The notes: generated from the letters alone by a model not told the origin. Positions 48,681-64,000 are shown, counted from the first letter of the stretch. The stretch is DNA of 64,000 nt from an uncultured Ignavibacteria bacterium (GCA_964593585.1 CAZQIZ010000009.1:306-64305), one strand, 5' to 3'. A program made the numbers and translations.

Positions 48681-48872
48681 CCGTCATTGCAAGCCCGCCC
48701 GCGGCGAATTTCTCCTCGCAATGACGGAGGGATTCGGAACTCACGTCGACGATCCTACGATTCCCGTCATTCCAAGCCGGCGCTCTATGCCGGCTTGGAA
48801 TCTTTTTTTGGCACTCCCCATCCGTCATTGCGAGTCCCGCGCTTTATGCGGGGCGAAGCAATCTTTGTCCTC
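48681..48872. repeat. Cluster of nested palindromic repeat units (CGTCATT-hairpin-AATCTTT family): cgtcattgcaag...ctcctcgcaatgacgg; cgtcattccaagccggcgctctatgccggcttggaatcttt; cgtcattgcgagtcccgcgctttatgcggggcgaagcaatctttgt
   Basis: Three units, each bounded by cgtcatt...aatc(ttt), with perfect internal stems (ccaagccggc/gccggcttgg; cccgc/gcggg). The same units recur at 35840-35864, 53930-54035 and 60372-60678. They give rise to the spurious ORF peptides RHCESRALGG/AKQSL. Confidence 0.6.
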
Positions 48873-51795: not shown

Positions 51796-51850
51796 ACCTC
51801 TCCCTGCAAGGGAGAGGTCGTCCCGGCTCGCCGGGACGGGTGAGGGTCCA
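51796..51850. repeat. Family-2 palindromic repeat: cctctccctgcaagggagagg + tcgtcccggctcgccgggacgggtgaggg
   Basis: Two adjacent perfect hairpins (ctctccct/agggagag; gtcccgg/ccgggac). Near-identical composite at 61535-61600. Confidence 0.55.
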
Positions 51851-53929: not shown

Positions 53930-54035
53930 GGCGTCGTCGTCCGCCTCCGGCGGACTCCTCCTCGCAATGACGAGGAGGTAGACCCCATCCGTCATTGCGA
54001 GTCCGCCGCAGGCGGGCGAAGCAATCTTTATTCCC
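53930..54035. repeat. CGTCATT-family nested palindromic repeat cluster (cgtcgtccgcctccggcggactcctcctcgcaatgacgaggagg ... ccgtcattgcgagtccgccgcaggcgggcgaagcaatcttt)
   Basis: Same unit types as at 48681-48872 and 60372-60678. Perfect stems ctcctcg/cgaggag and gtccgcc/ggcggac. Confidence 0.55.
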
Positions 54036-54802: not shown

Positions 54803-56494
54803 ATGCTCCGCCGTCTGCACATCCGCAACTTCGCCATTCTCGAGGACCTCGAACTGTCCTTCACTCCCGGCCTGACCGTGTTCACCGGCGAAACCGGCGC
54901 GGGCAAGACCATCCTCGTCGAAGCGATCCGCTTCCTGCTGGGCGGAAAAACCGGCGTCGAGATGATCCGCACCGGCGCCGACCGCGCGGTGGTGGAGGGG
55001 GACTTCGACGGCACAGTCATCCGCCGCGAACTGAGCGCCGCCGGACGTTCGCGCTGTTTCCGCGACGAGGAACAACTCACTCTCGCCGAACTGGCGACGC
55101 TCGGCGAGTCACTGGCCGATCACTGCGGCCAGCACTCGCACCAGGTGTTGCTGGACCCGTCACGCCACCTCGAGTGGCTCGACCGCGCCGCATCCGCTCT
55201 CACAACCGTCGAGCGCGTCAAATCCACCTGGTCCGAACTGTCGGCCGTCGCGCAGAGCATCCGCGATCTCGAGGCCCGCATCGCCCGTCGCCGCGAGGAA
55301 GAGGAACTGCGCGCCTTCCAGATCGGCGAAATCCGCTCCGCCGCTCTGCAGCCCGATGAGGAAGAGCAATTGAAGGCCGAGGCCACCGTCCTCAAGCATG
55401 CGCGCCGTCTGGCCGAAACCGCCGAACTGGCGCTGCAACTGCTCACCGACGAGGAGTCTTCGGTTGAGGGGGCCATCGGACGCGCCCGCCGCGAGGCCGA
55501 AAACGCCGCCCACATCGACCCGCGCTGGCAGGAGATTGTCGCGCCGCTCACCGCCGCTGGCGATGCCGTGGTCGATGCCGTGCGCGCCCTCACCCACTAC
55601 CGCGACAGTCTCGCCTTCGATCCGATGCGCGCCGATCAGATCGAAGCGCGTCTGTCGGAAATCTACCGGCTGAAGAAGAAGTATGGCGACTCCGTCGCCG
55701 CCATTCTCGCCCGTCTGGCCGATCTCGAATCCGAGCAGTCCTCGTCGGCCGCGCTCGATGATCAACTGCGCGACGCCACGGCGCGCCGCCGTCAGCTCGA
55801 AGACACGCTGGTCGCCTTGTGCGCTGATTTATCGATCAAACGCCACACCGCCGCCGAATCGCTGGCCGCCGGCGCCAATGCGGTCATCCGGCGTCTCGGC
55901 ATGGCCAAAGCCGCGGTGCGCATCGACCTGACTCCGCACGCCGAGGGCGGATTGGTGATTGACGGCCACCGCCTTCATGACACCGGCGCCGAGTCCGCCC
56001 ACTTTCTCTTTGAGGCCAATCCCGCCGAGGGCTTCAAGCCCCTGCACAAGATTGCCTCCGGCGGCGAACTCTCCCGCCTGCTTTTGGCTTTCAAATCGGC
56101 GGTTCAGGACAACGGGACACAACGCGCCGCGACGAGACCCCGGCGCGGTTCACCGTCCGCTCCGATGGCCGCCCCGCTCTACATTTTCGATGAGATCGAC
56201 TCCGGCATCGGCGGGCAGACCGCCCACGCTGTCGCCCGCGAGATCAAAACGCTGGCCGCCGATGCGCAGGTCTTCCTGATCACCCACCTGCAGCAACTGG
56301 CCACCGTCGCCGACACCCACTTCCGCATCACCAAGAAGACCGCCGCCGGACGCGCCCGCGTGATTGTCGAGCCGCTTTCCGGCGATGCCCGCATTCAGGA
56401 ACTGGCGCGCATGATCGCCGGCGATGAAGTCACCGACCGCACCCTCGAACTGGCCGCCGAACTCGCCAGCGCCAAAACCCGCCGCAAGCGGTAG
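54803..56494 (+). CDS. recN: DNA repair protein RecN
   Basis: N-terminus MLRRLHIRNFAILEDLELSFTPGLTVFTGETGAGKTILVEAIRFLLGG, coiled-coil middle, C-terminal GGELSRLLLAFK and PLYIFDEIDSGIGG: the canonical RecN SMC-like architecture. Confidence 0.9.
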   Translation: MLRRLHIRNFAILEDLELSFTPGLTVFTGETGAGKTILVEAIRFLLGGKTGVEMIRTGADRAVVEGDFDGTVIRRELSAAGRSRCFRDEEQLTLAELATLGESLADHCGQHSHQVLLDPSRHLEWLDRAASALTTVERVKSTWSELSAVAQSIRDLEARIARRREEEELRAFQIGEIRSAALQPDEEEQLKAEATVLKHARRLAETAELALQLLTDEESSVEGAIGRARREAENAAHIDPRWQEIVAPLTAAGDAVVDAVRALTHYRDSLAFDPMRADQIEARLSEIYRLKKKYGDSVAAILARLADLESEQSSSAALDDQLRDATARRRQLEDTLVALCADLSIKRHTAAESLAAGANAVIRRLGMAKAAVRIDLTPHAEGGLVIDGHRLHDTGAESAHFLFEANPAEGFKPLHKIASGGELSRLLLAFKSAVQDNGTQRAATRPRRGSPSAPMAAPLYIFDEIDSGIGGQTAHAVAREIKTLAADAQVFLITHLQQLATVADTHFRITKKTAAGRARVIVEPLSGDARIQELARMIAGDEVTDRTLELAAELASAKTRRKR

Positions 56495-57681: not shown

Positions 57682-59103
57682 CTAAGCGGCGCGCCGTGGT
57701 TTGCCCGGACCGCGCCGTCCGGCCGGTTTGCTCGTACGGCGTCCATAACCGCCGCCGGCCGGTTTTGGTTTCGACGGCGCCGCCGGTTTTGACACCGGGG
57801 CGGCGGGCACACGCCGTTTGTCCTTGGCTCGCGAGCGTTCCCTCTCGGCCGCCTTTCGCGTTTTGATCGCCGCAATCCGCTCGTGCAGCGGGATTTCCAG
57901 CTTCTCCGGCGCCTTGGCGTTGTAGTCGAACCCCGCCAGGGTCAGCCGCGGCAACCTCTGACCGACCGCCTTCTCGATCGCGCGCAGGTCGGATTCCTCC
58001 TCCGGCGCGACAAATGTGAATGCATCCCCGGTCATCGCAGCCCGCGCGGTACGTCCCACCCGGTGGATGTAGCTTTCCGGCATCTCCGGCACATCGAAGT
58101 TGACCACATGCGACAGCGCCTCGACATCGATTCCGCGCGCCGCGATGTCGGTGGCCACCAGCACCGGGAATTTCCCCTTCTTGAATCCCTCCAGCGCCTC
58201 GGTGCGCTGGTTCTGGCTGCGGTTGCCGTGAATGCGTTCGCAACGGACTCCGTGCTTCTGCAGGTATTCCGCCAGACGGTTGGCGCGGTGCTTGGTGCGG
58301 GTGAACACCAGCGCGCTCTTGATCGACCCCTGACGGATCAGTTCCAGTAGCAGGGGGGACTTCAAATCGCGGCGCACCGGATAGACCGCCTGCGCGATCC
58401 CGGTCGCCGGCTCCGACTTGCGGTCGATGTTGATCGCCACCGGATTCTTCAGCATCTCGCGCGACAACTCGACGATCGGCGGCGGCAGCGTCGCCGAGAA
58501 AAACAACGTCTGCTTGCGCGGCGGCAGATGCTCCAAGACCCGTCGGATGTCGGGGAGAAAGCCCATGTCCAGCATCCGGTCGGCCTCGTCGAGCACCAGA
58601 ATCTCCAGCCCGGCCAGCTTCGCATACGGATACTGAAAGTGATCCAGGAGACGTCCCGGCGTTGCCACGATCACATCGACGCCGACACGGAACGCGTGCT
58701 CCTGCGGACCCATGCCGACCCCGCCGAAGACCGCCGCGCTCGACAGCGGCGTGTGGGTCGCCAGAAGTTCCAGATGCTCGGCGATCTGCGCCGCCAGTTC
58801 ACGGGTCGGCGTGAGGACCAGCGCGCGCGTGGTGCGGCGACGCTTCCCCAGCAGTTGGTGCAGAATCGGCAGGACAAAGGCGGCCGTCTTCCCCGATCCG
58901 GTCATCGCGCAGGCCAGGACATCGCGTCCCTCCAGCGCCGGCGGGATCGCGTCGCGTTGAATCGGCGTCGCGGTACGAAACCCCAGATCGGCGAACCCGC
59001 GCAGCAAGTCGGGATGCAATCCAAACGAGGCGAAATCCCCGGATACGTCGATGGTCTTGGCGGCCGTGTCAGGGGCGGCCGCGGCCCCGGTCTTCGAAAT
59101 CAA
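57682..59103 (-). CDS. DEAD-box ATP-dependent RNA helicase (RhlE-like) with basic C-terminal tail
   Basis: Q-motif region. AMTGSGKTAAF (motif I), LVLTPTRELAAQI, VLDEADRMLDMGF (DEAD), SAT, HRVGRTARAG. Arg/Lys-rich C-terminus. Confidence 0.9.
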   Translation of the reverse strand: MISKTGAAAAPDTAAKTIDVSGDFASFGLHPDLLRGFADLGFRTATPIQRDAIPPALEGRDVLACAMTGSGKTAAFVLPILHQLLGKRRRTTRALVLTPTRELAAQIAEHLELLATHTPLSSAAVFGGVGMGPQEHAFRVGVDVIVATPGRLLDHFQYPYAKLAGLEILVLDEADRMLDMGFLPDIRRVLEHLPPRKQTLFFSATLPPPIVELSREMLKNPVAINIDRKSEPATGIAQAVYPVRRDLKSPLLLELIRQGSIKSALVFTRTKHRANRLAEYLQKHGVRCERIHGNRSQNQRTEALEGFKKGKFPVLVATDIAARGIDVEALSHVVNFDVPEMPESYIHRVGRTARAAMTGDAFTFVAPEEESDLRAIEKAVGQRLPRLTLAGFDYNAKAPEKLEIPLHERIAAIKTRKAAERERSRAKDKRRVPAAPVSKPAAPSKPKPAGGGYGRRTSKPAGRRGPGKPRRAA

Positions 59104-59297
59104 TAAGCCTCACAGTGCTGTCCCCTCCGGCCGCACACCATGTGCGCCGCGGACAGACTCATAAGTATACGGAAATCCTCTCCCGATTCCTTCCCTTATC
59201 TCGGCTCTCACACTGCGCGCCTGGCGCGATCCACCGCCCCCAATTCGGGGGTGCCGATCACGCCGCCGGGTAGGGTAGAGGCGATTGTCATCCGATC

Positions 59298-60080
59298 ATG
59301 AAATCACTCCTGTACGGCCAACTGGCCGTGGCCACCGGCAGCGTGTCGGCGGCCGCTGACACCCCGCGCGAACGTCTCGCCGCCCTGATCAATGAACGCG
59401 TTCAGCCGCCGGCGCCGCTTGCGCTCGATCTGTTGCACATCCGCGCCCTGCGCGTGGTCTCCGATGGCGTCAACGATCTCGGCGGCTGCTTCCCGCGCGA
59501 TGAGCATGCCCGTCTCTGCGAACTGCTGGTCGATTCGCCGGTCCTGATCGGCCATGACCATCGCCGTCTGCCGGTGGCGCGCAACTTCGCCGCCCGTTGT
59601 GTCGAGGATGGCGAGCGCGCCTGGGTCGAATCGTGGTTCTACTGGCGGCGCGGCGAGGGGCCGCTCCACGATCAACTTGCCTGCGACATCGACGCCGGCA
59701 TCGTCAAGGAGGGCTCGATCGGGTTTGTCTTCGAACACCCCCGCTGCGCCCTCTGCGGACAAGACATCCGCGCCTGCGAGCACATCCCCGGACGCGCCTA
59801 CGACGGCGCCGTTGCCTACTACGAGTACCGCGGCATCCAGCGGGTGCTGGAAACCTCGCTGGTCTACCGCGGCGCGACACCCGGCACACGGATCGTCCGT
59901 TATCCGCTCTTCTCCGACCGGGACGCGGCCATCAACTCCGACCTTCCCACCCTTCTCCGGGTGTCCCCCCCAACCTCCCGCGCTCTGTCCGCCTACCACT
60001 GTCCCGCCCGCCACACCCCATGGCCGCGTCCGCAACTCCGGCGCGGCCATGGGCCCCCGCCGCAACGGGAGGCACGATGA
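59298..60080 (+). CDS. HK97-family phage prohead protease-like protein (Peptidase S78/U35-like)
   Basis: VLIGHDHRRLPVARN (compare L-x-N-H-D...LG) and EGSIGFVFE (compare G-M-S-F-G-F) resemble the catalytic His and Ser regions of HK97 gp4-type proteases. Lies upstream of decoration-like and capsid-like genes. Confidence 0.5.
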   Translation: MKSLLYGQLAVATGSVSAAADTPRERLAALINERVQPPAPLALDLLHIRALRVVSDGVNDLGGCFPRDEHARLCELLVDSPVLIGHDHRRLPVARNFAARCVEDGERAWVESWFYWRRGEGPLHDQLACDIDAGIVKEGSIGFVFEHPRCALCGQDIRACEHIPGRAYDGAVAYYEYRGIQRVLETSLVYRGATPGTRIVRYPLFSDRDAAINSDLPTLLRVSPPTSRALSAYHCPARHTPWPRPQLRRGHGPPPQREAR

Positions 60081-60343
60081 ACAACAACTGGATCAAGCCG
60101 CTGACATCGATTGTGCTGATCGTCGCCGGCGTGCTGGCCGCCTACTACACCACCGTCTATGGCATCCGTCTGACCGTCAGCGAAAAAGCCGATCGCGCGA
60201 CCGTCGAGCAGATCGACCGCCGCCTGGTCACCATCGAAACACTCCTGCGCACCGACATCGCGCACCAGACCGACCTCCTCGAACTGCGCGCCGCCCTCGA
60301 CAACCGCCTGACCCGCATCGAAACTCTCCTCGAATCGCGGTAA
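60077..60343 (+). CDS. Small membrane-anchored coiled-coil protein (88 aa), hypothetical
   Basis: GGAGGCACG-ATG, overlapping the preceding stop (ATGA). TM helix LTSIVLIVAGVLAAYYTTVYGI followed by a heptad-like region EQIDRRLVTIETLLRTDIAHQTDLLELRAALDNRLTRIETLLESR. Confidence 0.45.
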   Translation: MNNNWIKPLTSIVLIVAGVLAAYYTTVYGIRLTVSEKADRATVEQIDRRLVTIETLLRTDIAHQTDLLELRAALDNRLTRIETLLESR

Positions 60344-60371
60344 CAGCGATGGCCAGCCTTTACCTCGCAAC

Positions 60372-60678
60372 GCCGAAGAGGCACGCCCCCACCCGTCATT
60401 GCGAGTCCCGCGCTCTTGGCGGGACGAAGCAATCTTTGTTCGCCCCACTACCCGGCCAAAAAAGATTGCCTCGTCGTCATCCGCCTTCGGCGGACTCCCC
60501 TTCGCAATCGCGGAGGAGCGCGGAACCCACGGCAACGATCAGACCAAAATCCGTCATTCCAAGCCGGCGCTCTTTGCCGGCTTGGAATCTTTGTTAAAGC
60601 GCCACCCACCATTCCGCGTCATCCGTCATTGTGAGTCCCGCGCTCTTGGCGGGACAAGGCAATCCTTGTTTCCCCCGA
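60372..60678. repeat. Largest CGTCATT-family palindromic repeat cluster (at least 4 units)
   Basis: cgtcattgcgagtcccgcgctcttggcgggacgaagcaatctttgt; cgtcatccgccttcggcggactccccttcgcaatcgcggaggag; cgtcattccaagccggcgctctttgccggcttggaatctttgt; cgtcattgtgagtcccgcgctcttggcgggacaaggcaatccttgt. All contain perfect GC stems. Confidence 0.6.
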
Positions 60679-60687
60679 AAGGACCAC

Positions 60688-60963
60688 ATGCCCGCCGACA
60701 CCAACTGGGAGATCATCCGCTCCCGTCTTTCCGAACGCATCCGTCGCCGCGTCATCGCCCTGCAACGCCTCCAGGGCAACCAGCCCGATCCGGAGGCCAT
60801 CGACCAGGAACTGAGTGAATGCGGCGATGACGCCGCCGCGCTGTGGGCGTTGGCCGAACGGGTCGACCGCGCGCTCGATGCCGCTGTCCGACCGCGCGCG
60901 GCACGGCTCCCCATCCCCGGCGCGCCGCCGGTCACCGCCAACCATGAATTCCGTACCCGCTGA
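60688..60963 (+). CDS. Hypothetical protein (91 aa)
   Basis: AAGGA RBS then ATG 60688 (MPADTNWEIIRSRLSERIRRRVIALQRLQGNQPDPEAIDQELSE...). No family recognisable. Sits inside the putative phage head module. Confidence 0.35.
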   Translation: MPADTNWEIIRSRLSERIRRRVIALQRLQGNQPDPEAIDQELSECGDDAAALWALAERVDRALDAAVRPRAARLPIPGAPPVTANHEFRTR

Positions 60964-60974
60964 GAGGAACCCCC

Positions 60975-61397
60975 ATGCCCATCCGCGATCACAACCTCGA
61001 TTCGATCGGCGAACTCTACGCCACTTTCAAAGTCAAGCAGACAGCCGGCGTCGATGACCTCAACGACTCCCACATCGGCCGTGCGGTCACACTCACCGGC
61101 TCCAACGAGGTCGGCCCCGGTGTCGACAACGCCGTACTGATCGGCAAACTCATCGACCTGACCCATGAAGACCGCGACACCGGACGCCGTCTCGCGACCG
61201 TGCAGATCGCCGGCGTCTGCCGTCTGCCCGTCGGCGCGCCGTTTCCGTCGGTCGGCGAGCGTGTCGTCTGCGCCGCCAACGCCACGGTCAAGCAGGCGCC
61301 AGGCCTCACGGGCAACGATCCCGCCGGCGGCAACACCGCCCGCGGCACCGTGCTGGCCGTCAACGGCACCACCGATTGCATCATCCTGCTGAATTGA
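60975..61397 (+). CDS. DUF2190-like putative capsid decoration (head fibre) protein
   Basis: GAGAGGA RBS. Pattern ...GRAVTLTGSNEVG...GKLIDLTHEDRDTGRRLATVQIAGVCRLPVGAPFPSVGERVVCAANATV...ARGTVLAVNGTTDCIILL resembles DUF2190 family proteins found between prohead protease and major capsid genes. Confidence 0.4.
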   Translation: MPIRDHNLDSIGELYATFKVKQTAGVDDLNDSHIGRAVTLTGSNEVGPGVDNAVLIGKLIDLTHEDRDTGRRLATVQIAGVCRLPVGAPFPSVGERVVCAANATVKQAPGLTGNDPAGGNTARGTVLAVNGTTDCIILLN

Positions 61398-61534
61398 CAC
61401 ATGGGTTCCCTTACCCGATTCGCTGACGGCGAATCGACCTTCCCCTTAGGTGGAGGTGAATCTCCAACGCCCAACTTGTTGCCCAAGCTCTGTGATAGGA
61501 CACGAATCTTCGTGTCAACAACCAAGAGGGTGTA

Positions 61535-61600
61535 TTTACCTCTCCCTCAGGGAGAGGTCGTCCCTGCCGTAGGCAGGGGCGGGTGAGGGGACCGGGCGCA
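61535..61600. repeat. Family-2 palindromic repeat (cctctccctcagggagagg + tcgtccctgccgtaggcaggggcgggtgagggg)
   Basis: Near-identical to 51796-51850 in the first hairpin. The second hairpin is a variant (ccctgcc/ggcaggg). Confidence 0.5.
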
Positions 61601-61686
61601 TGACCAGATTCCAGTCATCCCCGTGCATTCAATACGACAGCCAAGCGAGCGATCCCCACAACACCATCATCCCTCCAAGGACTCAC

Positions 61687-62790
61687 ATGGACCTCGATAA
61701 ACTCCTCTCCGATCCACCCGCCGACCTGCTGGCGCGCGCCTCCGTCGAACCCTCCGATGGCCGCGTCGACCTGCGGCGCGCCCGTCAACTGTCCATCACC
61801 CGCGACACTTACCTCGAAGCCGAGTCGCGCGGCCTGACCCTCTCCGAACTGCTCGAATCCCCCGACTTCGACCCCAGCCCCGTCGACAGCCCGTTGGATG
61901 CCTTCGAACGTCAACTGGCCGCGCGCGGGCTGCGCGTCGGCGGATCCAATCCGGTCACCGTCGAGCTGTTTTACCGCGGCGCGCCGGCGCTTTTGCCCGA
62001 ATTCATGATGCGCGAAATCCGCGCCGGCATGGCGATGCGTCCCGAACTGGCCGGCCTGGTCGGCGCCACCTCGCGCATCACCGCCAACCGCTACACCCCG
62101 TTCGATGTCGATGCCGCCATCACCGATCCGAAATGGTCGCTGCGTCCGACCGGCGATGGCGCCAATGTCCCGGCGGTGGTGGTCACCGAACGGGTCAACT
62201 CGATCGACATCCCGGACTATGGCCTGGCGCTGAAGGCCTCCTACAAGGCGCTGCGCCATCGCACCATGCCGCAATTCAAGGTGCTGCTCTGGTACATCGG
62301 CTACCGCATGCAGGTCGACAAACTCGGATTGCTGGTCGATGTGCTGCTCAACGGCGACGGCAACGACAACGCCGCCGATGTGATCAACACCGCCGTCTCC
62401 GGCGCCTTCACCTACGCCGACCTGGTCGCCTTCTGGTCGGAACTGCATCCGTTCGAGATGAACACGCTGGTCTGCGGCAAGGCGAAGCTGGCCGCCATCC
62501 TCACCATGGATGAATTCAAGGACGCCAACGCCGGGTTCCGTTTTCAGAGCACCGGCGAACTGGTCAGCCCGATCGGCGCCTCGCTGGTGCGCTCGGATGA
62601 AGTCCCCGCCGATCTGGTCATCGGCATGGATCGACGCTTCGCCGCCGAGGAGGTCATCACCCAGCCGCTCACCGTCGAATACGACAAGATCATCGAGCAG
62701 CGCTTCGAGGAGGCCGTGATCTCCGAATCCGTCGCCTACGCCAAGGTCATTCCCGACGCTGCCAAAGCCCTCGACACCGTCTGGCCGTAG
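61687..62790 (+). CDS. Putative HK97-fold phage major capsid protein (~367 aa)
   Basis: AAGGA RBS then ATG 61687. Size, helix-rich N-terminal ~100 aa (delta-domain-like) and position after protease and decoration genes fit a major capsid protein. No diagnostic motif could be verified by eye. Confidence 0.4.
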   Translation: MDLDKLLSDPPADLLARASVEPSDGRVDLRRARQLSITRDTYLEAESRGLTLSELLESPDFDPSPVDSPLDAFERQLAARGLRVGGSNPVTVELFYRGAPALLPEFMMREIRAGMAMRPELAGLVGATSRITANRYTPFDVDAAITDPKWSLRPTGDGANVPAVVVTERVNSIDIPDYGLALKASYKALRHRTMPQFKVLLWYIGYRMQVDKLGLLVDVLLNGDGNDNAADVINTAVSGAFTYADLVAFWSELHPFEMNTLVCGKAKLAAILTMDEFKDANAGFRFQSTGELVSPIGASLVRSDEVPADLVIGMDRRFAAEEVITQPLTVEYDKIIEQRFEEAVISESVAYAKVIPDAAKALDTVWP

Positions 62791-62885
62791 CGACCCCTCA
62801 CCCGCCTCACGCCTGTCGGCGTGAGGCGGCCTCTCCCTGAGGGAGAGGCGAACTTCTTTTCCGTCCATGTTGAACTAGCCCTGTA

Positions 62886-63044
62886 GGGCGGGCTCTGCCC
62901 GCCGGCTTTTCATCTCACGCCCCCTGCCGCATGCGGCTCGCCACCTTCGGGGATCGCCCTCCCACGAAGACTTGATCCTCCCACGTGGGGCGGGCTCTGC
63001 CCGCCGGCTTTTCATCTCACGCCCCCTGCCGCGCGCGGCTCGCA
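62886..63044. repeat. Two copies of a 57-bp direct repeat (gggcgggctctgcccgccggcttttcatctcacgccccctgccgc..gcggctcgc) with ~102-bp periodicity
   Basis: Copies at 62886-62942 and 62988-63044 differ at 2 positions. Each contains the hairpin ggcggg-ctct-gcccgcc. Further small palindromes (ccccctctgggggagg; ctctgcgaagcagag) follow. Confidence 0.5.
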
Positions 63045-63171
63045 GGGTGGCTCGCCCTTCCGAAGAGCATCCGGTTCTTCTGAATGGGAAGTTCACCTCC
63101 CCCTCTGGGGGAGGCCGCTCTGCGAAGCAGAGCGGGTGAGGGCACCCGCGCCCTCCGCTATCCGATCACTC

Positions 63172-64000
63172 ATGCACATCTCTCTCGACACGTCCACCGC
63201 CCAATTCCCCGCCGGTCTGCCGACGCAGAAACGGATCTTCCGTCTCGCGCACGGCGCGTACGCCGGACGGTTCCTCGCGCTGTTTGCGCGCACACCGTCC
63301 AATCTGGCCCTGTGCTGGTCTGATCCACCGCACACCGCCTGGACCGACCCGGTCGACTACCTCACCGAGTCGGATGACCTGCCCTTCGATGCGGTGATCG
63401 ATGATGATGGCCATGTCACCGTCGCCTACACACAATCCGGAATTGCCGCGCTGCGTGTGGTCCGTCTCGCGCATCTGAATGGCGCCTGGGCGCCGCAGAC
63501 CCCGATCACAGTCTATGATTCGGCGTCGTCGGCCAATCGTCAGCCGTCCATCACACTCGATGCCTACAATCGTCTTTGGATCGCCTGGGCGCGCGATGAT
63601 GCCGGCGCCATCTCGCTGCGGGTGAAATCCTCAAGCGATGACGGCGCCACATGGGGCGCGGGCGCGGCCGATCCGGGAACCGATCTGTCCGGCACAGTCA
63701 ACGCCGTCTTCCCGCGTCTTGTGCCGCGCCCGACTCATCTGCATTGCCTCTACACGGTGAACGGAACCGAGGCGCGTCATCGCCGCATCGCGCTCGATGC
63801 CACACTCTGGGATCCGGCCGATCTGCTCTACACCGGTTCCGGTCTCGGCGCCGACATCACCGGCGCGGTCGCCGCCGATGGACGGCTCGGCGCGCTCTTT
63901 GCCGCTGAGGGGCAATTTTTTCTGAAGGAGTACGATGGTGCAAGCTGGGGCGCCCTGCAGACCGTCGCCGCGCAACCTGCCGTCGCGCCGATCCTTCGCT
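63172..64000 (+). CDS. Hypothetical protein with Asp-box (BNR)-like motif, 5-prime partial in this window (continues beyond the window end)
   Basis: Stop-free frame from ATG 63172 to the window end with GC3-rich codon usage. SSSDDGATWG matches S-x-D-x-G-x-T-W. No RBS evident. Confidence 0.5.
   Translation, partial: MHISLDTSTAQFPAGLPTQKRIFRLAHGAYAGRFLALFARTPSNLALCWSDPPHTAWTDPVDYLTESDDLPFDAVIDDDGHVTVAYTQSGIAALRVVRLAHLNGAWAPQTPITVYDSASSANRQPSITLDAYNRLWIAWARDDAGAISLRVKSSSDDGATWGAGAADPGTDLSGTVNAVFPRLVPRPTHLHCLYTVNGTEARHRRIALDATLWDPADLLYTGSGLGADITGAVAADGRLGALFAAEGQFFLKEYDGASWGALQTVAAQPAVAPILR

Follow-up and report, generated by a model that had tools for sequence, protein, structure and literature searches.

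Analysis of a 64,000-nucleotide stretch of DNA catalogued as an uncultured Ignavibacteria bacterium (GCA_964593585.1, CAZQIZ010000009.1:306-64305; hereafter the window, along whose full length positions are counted) reveals, close to its downstream end, a cluster of head genes of the HK97 phage type that includes a probable head maturation protease, a probable capsid cement protein and a major capsid protein (MCP). This cluster is part of a conserved module, whose genes are here labelled A to K, that recurs across Zixibacteria. Most lineages encode a portal protein and a large terminase (TerL) directly upstream of the module, and in the close relatives of the window these two genes are found at a second chromosomal locus, preceded by the same element of about 40 nt that precedes the protease gene. 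We propose that the two loci probably constitute one co-regulated, domesticated system for a DNA-packaging particle, which resembles gene transfer agents (GTAs) and would be of independent origin. More tentatively, and with somewhat less than an even chance in our estimation, the system could be an undescribed, independent GTA spread across much of Zixibacteria, with two operons, the shared element and a β-propeller protein that replaces a recognisable tail.

Head proteins, distribution and inheritance of the module

The product of gene E matches phrog_3922 over residues 34-363 (E 5.4e-56) and exceeds the cut-off of the Pfam family PF25209 (Phage_capsid_4; 28.5 bits, cut-off 27, residues 100-357), and its start at 61687 agrees with the conserved N-terminus of the family. 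Judged by these profile matches it is a true phage MCP, as had been proposed in an earlier reading made from the window alone (hereafter the sequence-only reading). The same reading had pointed to the H-D and S-(I/F)-G-F motifs of prohead proteases in the product of gene A; these are indeed present as GHDHRRLP and EGSIGF, and the protein matches phrog_16951 (E 1e-16). An alignment of 29 homologues shows H86 and S140 to be nearly invariant, and the four residues of a CxxC...CxH metal-binding cluster (C150, C153, C160 and H162) to be invariant or nearly so. The window protease itself has no Pfam match, PF04586 included; phage members of phrog_16951 stay below the cut-off of Peptidase_S78_2 (XkdF, PF14550; 23.9 and 20.6 bits, cut-off 24), also match phrog_18299, annotated as 'head maturation protease', and in phages the homologues are encoded between the portal and MCP genes.

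The architecture of the protease differs between clades. In that of the window, gene A encodes the protease domain only, and the ligase-like C-terminal domain of other clades is missing; in portal-adjacent lineages the protein reaches 500-780 aa and combines the protease with an ATP-dependent DNA-ligase-like domain (Pfam DNA_ligase_A_M, E 6e-29), which is an unusual fusion for a head module. Examples are found at L022 6086-8419, L014 6268-8367 and L088 1759-4158 (L-numbers denote fetched loci), and some versions add a LigD phosphoesterase-like domain. A few lineages retain an intact KYDG adenylation motif in the fused ligase domain; most have a degenerate version (PAYEG). An ancestral fusion of the maturation protease to a DNA-ligase-like domain forms part of our joint reading of the system as an undescribed two-operon GTA of Zixibacteria, and we hold it just as tentatively.

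Between the protease and the MCP, in the position that it also takes in phages, lies gene D, which encodes the most conserved protein of the cluster (mean column identity 74% in 28 species). The window protein alone gives no match to PF09956 (formerly DUF2190, now Phage_cement_2) at E values up to 10; the Pfam family is matched by 8 of 28 orthologues (best E 3.1e-5), and the D family corresponds to phrog_4588, annotated as 'virion structural protein', with phage members at E 1e-16. The resemblance to DUF2190 proteins suggested by the sequence-only reading is seen in these orthologues. Gene B, whose start overlaps the protease stop codon (ATGA), has no significant family match in Pfam, PHROG or NCBIfam. 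Its similarity to the NCBIfam 'GTA head formation protein' (17.7 bits, cut-off 50) is at noise level and was not used as evidence, and a scaffold-like or membrane-associated role for it is a guess. Gene C likewise has no family match in these three collections. Profile searches against PDB sequences returned nothing usable for the protease, portal, cement protein, G or H.

A protein search recovered 641 capsid homologues; the best 120 listed are 60-100% identical to the window protein, mostly derive from Zixibacteria where the source is named, and many lie on contigs of 0.1-2.8 Mb. In a scan of one genome per GTDB species, at least 100 species genomes possess a capsid relative with 56-88% identity, a figure that counts carriers. 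Eighty genome loci were fetched, almost all of them from Zixibacteria, and tblastn and blastp recover the gene order A-B-D-MCP-F-G-H-(I)-K in practically all loci of sufficient length. In most of the 80 loci the genes vary very little in length (about 140 aa for D, about 367 for the MCP and about 123 for H; mostly 470-475 for F and mostly 270-281 for G). Some ENA records bear the label 'Ignavibacteria'; since their loci (e.g. L025 and L026) are organised as in records labelled Zixibacteria, we treat these labels as imprecise, and the source organism of the window is a high-GC Zixibacterium.

Several lines of evidence concern the mode of inheritance. The G+C content (GC) of the module follows that of its flanks closely (r 0.97, range 0.37-0.65, 56 loci). 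One large clade retains a single fixed host context in 12-18 species, with TPR and PEP-CTERM genes upstream and genes for a dockerin/Ig protein and lipoyl synthase (LipA) downstream; in the clade of the window recN lies upstream, joined in the nearest relatives by a desaturase and a DEAD-box helicase gene. Pairwise MCP identity correlates with that of the adjacent LipA (r 0.86) and RecN (r 0.84), and the MCP is the more conserved protein in both comparisons (mean 72% versus 60% for LipA, and 80% versus 57% for RecN). MCP and TerL distances are also correlated (r 0.93). The ratio of nonsynonymous to synonymous substitution rates (dN/dS) lies between 0.02 and 0.11 in the capsid gene and does not exceed 0.35 in any other module gene, compared with 0.085-0.24 in neighbouring host genes. 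No integrase, repressor, replication, excision or lysogeny gene was found in any flank with precomputed or tested annotation, and within 10 kb of the capsid gene in both directions, on the window's own contig as well as in relatives, there are only module and host genes. Together these observations indicate that the cluster is inherited vertically and is under purifying selection, and the GC tracking, synteny and selection speak for the domesticated, GTA-like capsid system that had been among the options of the sequence-only reading.

Portal, terminase and the shared upstream element

In most lineages the two genes directly upstream of gene A encode the portal protein (U; phrog_3753, E 2e-33) and TerL (phrog_2, E 1e-33, and also Pfam Terminase_6N/6C), the latter with invariant Walker A (GNRWGKS) and Walker B (DE) motifs and nuclease-domain aspartates; where contiguous, the full set spans 12-16 kb. 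Adjacent portal and TerL genes are missing in the clade of the window and in a few other lineages. In agreement with the sequence-only reading, tblastn detects no portal or terminase homologue anywhere in the 64-kb window, and no recognisable tail gene is present in it. To call the head module isolated, as that reading did, is misleading, because four relatives from the same clade encode both proteins at a second locus (last rows of Table 1). These relatives provide direct proof that both loci belong to one genome. A metagenome scan with the TerL profile further recovered portal-TerL pairs that have no capsid module within 10 kb, and these pairs form a high-GC TerL clade without a counterpart among the capsid-adjacent terminases. 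The host context of the second locus is conserved (thioredoxin, peptidase S8, a sigma factor, thiolase, enoyl-CoA hydratase and cmk), and the relocated portal and TerL genes are intact, with dN/dS of 0.09-0.28. A 520-aa protein encoded with the thioredoxin upstream of the relocated portal was considered as a further component; neither belongs to the system in other clades.

The 194-nt region upstream of gene A holds a conserved element consisting of a short hairpin and a downstream motif (Table 1). It was matched by blastn upstream of gene A in relatives and upstream of the portal gene at the second locus, and in one genome both copies can be seen on a single contig (L255 and L257). In the window the pattern of this element has one match against none expected. 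A degenerate form allowing up to three substitutions occurs 21 times in 3.14 Mb of fetched DNA when both strands are searched; all 21 sites are on the plus strand and close upstream of either gene A or the portal gene (at a distance of 40-170 nt from the called start in the cases checked), none lies elsewhere in that DNA, and 9 of the 21 had not been used to define the pattern. The shared element is the strongest sign that the two loci may still be co-regulated as one system. In clades with an undivided gene set (e.g. L014, L017, L022, L036, L035 and L049), a recurring (T/G)GGTGA(T/A) core, noticed by eye only, precedes the portal gene and often has AGGAT(A)GG after it; this core may be the counterpart of the 40-nt element.

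Downstream genes, repeats and layout of the window

Open reading frames A to E occupy the plus strand, with a GC content at third codon positions (GC3) of 0.77-0.84 that is of coding type. The DEAD-box helicase gene (57682-59103, minus strand) is divergent from the module, which begins downstream of it with gene A. The sequence-only reading had described the upstream core genes as lying on the opposite strand; this holds for the desaturase and the helicase only, as recN (54803-56494) is on the plus strand like the module. The L024 locus also has the upstream desaturase neighbour seen in the window, despite a capsid identity of only 59%.

Table 1. Features of the module in the window, and arrangement of the two loci in relatives of the same clade
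Feature	Position	Strand	Basis or remarks
Conserved element of about 40 nt	59237..59279	+	CCCCC-N5-GGGGG hairpin, then TG-N16-GGGTAGGGTAGA; 19 nt separate its end from the start codon of gene A
Gene A, probable head maturation (prohead) protease, XkdF / HK97 type, 260 aa	59298..60080	+	phrog_16951, conserved residues, phage homologues
Gene B, 88 aa, N-terminal membrane helix and coiled coil	60077..60343	+	Open reading frame; orthologues at the same position in 64 loci
Intergenic spacer filled by dispersed palindromic repeats	60344..60687	.	Two 57-nt copies at 60390-60446 and 60620-60676
Gene C, 91 aa, exclusive to the clade of the window	60688..60963	+	Gene call in L001; orthologues limited to 9 loci
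Gene D, probable capsid cement / decoration family, 140 aa	60975..61397	+	PF09956 (ex-DUF2190) via orthologues; phrog_4588
Structured palindromic repeat, Rfam whalefall-1-like, upstream of capsid gene	61536..61590	+	RF01762, 27.8 bits, gathering score 37, E 3e-4
Gene E, MCP, HK97-type family, 367 aa	61687..62790	+	phrog_3922, PF25209, 641 homologues
Spacer between capsid gene and F	62794..63143	.	whalefall-1-like elements at 62794-62851 (-) and 63093-63143 (+)
Two 72-nt direct repeats with terminator-like hairpins	62870-62941, 62972-63043		In the capsid-F spacer
Gene F, N-terminal 276 of 472 aa inside the window, runs off its end	63172..64000	+	β-propeller protein
Relative JBFMGX010000047.1 (107 kb)	Portal and TerL 1.6-4.2 kb; capsid gene 62.9 kb		58.7 kb apart; capsid 79% identical to that of the window
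Relative Ga0374056_00000094 (148 kb)			Portal/TerL and capsid loci 76 kb apart
Relative ERZ13692934 NODE_3 (1.46 Mb)			Loci about 101 kb apart, same strand; capsid 88.3% identical to that of the window, same recN-desaturase-DEAD synteny
Relative, metagenome-assembled genome CAYTTY01			Portal/TerL and capsid loci on different contigs

That the head module continues past the end of the window, as the sequence-only reading had considered, is evident from gene F, which runs off the end, and from a 60-kb contig of the Joint Genome Institute (L001) whose capsid protein is identical to that of the window. There the cluster extends about 5.5 kb past the capsid gene, with five to six more conserved genes beyond the window end; the products downstream of the capsid are F (472 aa), G (274 aa), H (124 aa), I (95 aa), J (196 aa) and K (379 aa). 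K (L001 15244-16383) is the last conserved gene, with orthologues in 42 loci and a variable length of 333-632 aa. In a sub-clade comprising L024, L027, L029, L045 and L071 the order of G and H is inverted (F-H-G). Past K, L001 carries a gene on the reverse strand and then genes for an M15 peptidase, a photolyase and an AcrB-type pump; neither an integrase nor a recognisable set of tail genes accompanies them, and the complete prophage just outside the window that would have refuted the sequence-only reading is not found there. The peptidase, a small Peptidase_M15_3 protein (L001 18722-19111; 23.4 bits, cut-off 23.2), is encoded about 6.3 kb past the window end and 2.3 kb downstream of the module. 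It was considered as an endolysin of the system; no other locus has a counterpart, and since it is unique to one genome it is probably not the lysin of the system.

Proteins F to K, both from the contig of the window and from distant clades, show no significant match to a functional family of Pfam or PHROG except for an Ig-like repeat in G, which is in common with phage tail proteins. The match of G to an NCBIfam tail-tube model is sub-threshold (46.7 bits, cut-off 60). For F, an AlphaFold model built with 27 homologues (predicted local distance difference test score (pLDDT) 92.7, predicted template modelling score (pTM) 0.83) predicts an N-terminal seven-bladed β-propeller with Asp-box, followed by a C-terminal β-sandwich. 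Against PDB sequences F gives weak sialidase matches only; it resembles polysaccharide lyases and lectins, and we infer that the particle may use it as an adsorption protein that binds or cleaves glycans.

Two families of palindromic repeats occupy the spacers of the module. The first, defined by the core CGTCATTGCGAG, is present at 48715-48868, 53932-54001 and 60390-60676, with 6 exact copies of the core in the window against 0.03 expected, and two of its 57-nt copies occupy the B-C spacer. The second is a two-hairpin repeat bounded by CACC...GGTGAGGG, which yields three sub-threshold matches to RF01762 (whalefall-1; 26.6-29.2 bits, gathering score 37). The window has a fourth copy at 51797-51846 on the plus strand, and further copies occur in relatives (L257 8961-9020 and L255 9916-9964); the second hairpin varies between copies, with both of its sides changing together. 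Whalefall-1 is an orphan metagenomic motif, and it may be a dispersed element of Zixibacteria-like genomes akin to repetitive extragenic palindromic (REP) sequences. The clusters that the sequence-only reading saw at both ends of the module are real; they do not mark its ends, and lie in intergenic spacers inside it. Attachment (att) sites were considered as an explanation for them and rejected, as both families are dispersed in the window (at 48.7, 51.8 and 53.9 kb) and in relatives and are thus genome-wide host repeats. Colonisation of the spacers of the element by such host repeats fits a long residence in the chromosome.

Competing explanations and related systems

In light of the above, the following mode of action can be proposed for a domesticated, GTA-like particle. 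A host-controlled signal acting at the shared element would turn on both operons; the capsid protein would assemble on the portal, the protease would process it, and the cement protein would stabilise the shell. TerL would then package DNA in a headful-type manner. The particle would be unable to carry or propagate the system, and the packaged DNA would be mostly that of the host, given the 60-100 kb between the loci of the structural genes and the lack of any function for replication, integration or excision; it is unlikely that one particle could hold both loci, which are 59-101 kb apart. Finally F, with G and H, would attach the particle to the surface glycan of a recipient cell. The portal and TerL remain intact and under selection even after their relocation, which points to DNA packaging as a selected activity.

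Several observations weigh against this proposal. Every functional step in it is inferred from the genes. There is no convincing tail, with no match to a tape measure, sheath, adaptor or nozzle protein in the profile searches, and no small terminase, holin or endolysin of the system was identified. Nearly all loci encode K with an N-terminal signal peptide, a trait unusual among virion proteins. AlphaFold gave a poor model for the MCP (pLDDT 47.5, pTM 0.26, 37 homologues) because all aligned sequences are at least 59% identical and offer too little diversity, so that the assignment of the HK97 fold rests on the profile matches. The window's own portal and TerL were not found in the 59 kb upstream of the module; as neighbours typical of the second locus (thiolase, enoyl-CoA hydratase and cmk) are also not found in the window, its portal and TerL most likely lie outside it. 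In L057 (chromosome CP070766, 6224-6400) a remnant of about 57 codons from the TerL C-terminus precedes an intact protease-capsid-F-G-H series, which indicates that packaging genes were deleted locally while the capsid genes persist; the latter may therefore serve a purpose with no packaging genes beside them.

Whatever speaks for domestication speaks just as much for a particle retained for a purpose other than gene transfer, such as a PBSX-like killer or bacteriocin in which the packaging of DNA is only incidental, the remodelling of surface glycans or biofilms, or the delivery of something other than DNA. The protease family XkdF is named after the PBSX defective prophage, F is similar to polysaccharide lyases and lectins, K is secreted and no DNA-delivery tail is recognised, all of which would suit such a role. 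Nevertheless, the intact portal and TerL, with conserved ATPase and nuclease residues and purifying selection after relocation, argue for the packaging of DNA, and the searches brought up no toxin, sheath or tube genes of the kind seen in tailocins; we regard this explanation as unlikely, though it deserves serious attention. A further rival is an encapsulin-like nanocompartment derived from a phage-type capsid protein, an option raised by the sequence-only reading. The system is built on an HK97-type phage MCP family, its capsid genes persist where the local TerL was deleted (L057), and the highly conserved partner D adjoins the shell gene. However, the MCP matches phage capsid families and no encapsulin family, it co-occurs and co-evolves with the maturation protease, cement protein, portal and large terminase, and no cargo enzyme is conserved alongside it, which makes a nanocompartment highly improbable.

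A still-mobile element, namely an ancient and highly successful temperate phage or a capsid-forming satellite (like the capsid-forming phage-inducible chromosomal islands, cf-PICIs) that co-speciates with Zixibacteria, would account for genes of tailed-phage type, for the classification of one such IMG/VR contig (L085) as viral, and for the variable gene order around TerL, with insertions of up to 6 kb and occasional inversions. It is very unlikely given that no integrase, excisionase, repressor, primase or replication gene lies in or beside any locus, that the chromosomal position is fixed across species whose LipA proteins are only 52-60% identical, that the set is split over 59-101 kb in the clade of the window, that its GC is fully equilibrated to each host, and that no close relatives other than the Zixibacteria-type contig described below occur among 2.9 million viral contigs. 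The decayed prophage remnant considered by the sequence-only reading is contradicted by genes that are all intact and of uniform length in most of the 80 loci, by dN/dS of 0.02-0.35, by an MCP that evolves more slowly than RecN or LipA, and by partner genes that persist under selection elsewhere in the genomes of relatives. A cryptic prophage decaying without function would explain the lack of a terminase, portal and tail in the window, the long spacers invaded by repeats and the loss of the C-terminal protease domain present in other clades; in view of the former points we consider it extremely improbable.

A single-sequence scan of IMG/VR (2.9 million viral contigs) found no relative, and an alignment-based scan gave the viral matches: a single close capsid relative with 63% identity, the next best being at most 41%. 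The former is a Zixibacteria-type contig that was also recovered, with identical length and gene coordinates, as metagenome locus L231. Tailed phages with a phrog_3922 capsid, a phrog_3753/30703 portal, a phrog_16951 protease and phrog_4588 have the same head order of portal-protease-(cement)-capsid, and the closest viral contigs, L088 and L089, also carry the protease-DNA-ligase fusion. Their capsids differ, being only 26-41% identical to those of the module. L089, the closest of those examined downstream of the capsid gene, encodes a contractile tail with a sheath protein (E 1e-64) and Dit, and in L087 and L104 Mu-F-like minor head domains are fused to the portal. Homologues of F, H, I and K are absent from all related viral contigs, and G has one on a single contig only (L103).

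GTAs, as a kind of viriform, are recognised by phage-derived proteins, by endogenised genes that often lie at several loci and by mostly vertical inheritance (Kogay et al. 2022, PMC9662315). Further criteria are the packaging of mostly random host DNA, a head too small for the GTA gene set and the delivery of DNA to cells, and the same review evaluates three genetically established, independently exapted GTA groups (PMC9662315). Phage-derived proteins, endogenised genes at more than one locus and vertical co-diversification with the host are all features of the Zixibacteria system, and we class it as GTA-like and not as a proven GTA. Like the RcGTA type of Alphaproteobacteria (Rhodogtaviriformidae), it is a cluster of phage-derived genes for head and packaging (about 13-15 kb) that lacks integrase and replication genes, occupies more than one locus, is inherited vertically and co-diverges with the host over a large clade, and shows slow, host-like evolution of the capsid and TerL (PMC9662315). 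Unlike RcGTA, to which no sequence relationship was detected (the sole NCBIfam GTA match being at noise level), it resides in Zixibacteria of the Fibrobacteres-Chlorobi-Bacteroidetes (FCB) group, has no recognisable siphovirus-type tail, tape measure or head spike, uses an XkdF-type protease that is often fused to a ligase-like domain, and has a β-propeller protein directly after the capsid.

With PBSX of Bacillus it shares a chromosomally fixed, non-propagating state and probably, by way of phage intermediates, the same broad XkdF / Peptidase_S78_2 protease family. PBSX is a single contiguous element of about 28 kb with a contractile tail and lysis genes, whereas in the Zixibacteria system no sheath or tube was found and the genes are split into two loci. 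A small gene set around an HK97-type capsid protein without adjoining tail genes is also typical of cf-PICIs and encapsulins. However, cf-PICIs are mobile and have an integrase, replication genes and att sites, and encapsulins come with cargo genes and without a portal, terminase or protease; the Zixibacteria module fits neither pattern. Searches of the literature on Zixibacteria in combination with GTA, capsid, prophage or terminase found nothing relevant, and the GTA literature searched held no report on the FCB superphylum or an uncultivated phylum.

To our knowledge, only a handful of independently domesticated GTAs are known. The Zixibacteria loci supply a concrete gene set and a candidate regulatory motif for testing, and they pose unusual structural questions, namely the protease-ligase fusion and the propeller protein that stands where connector or tail genes normally sit. 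Virus-detection pipelines are likely to mistake such loci for fragments of prophages, and one is already in IMG/VR. An MCP that is more tightly conserved than housekeeping enzymes in at least 100 species of Zixibacteria would imply a strongly selected, host-controlled particle. If this is true, it would bear on the exchange of DNA in Zixibacteria, which are widespread in sediments and groundwater.

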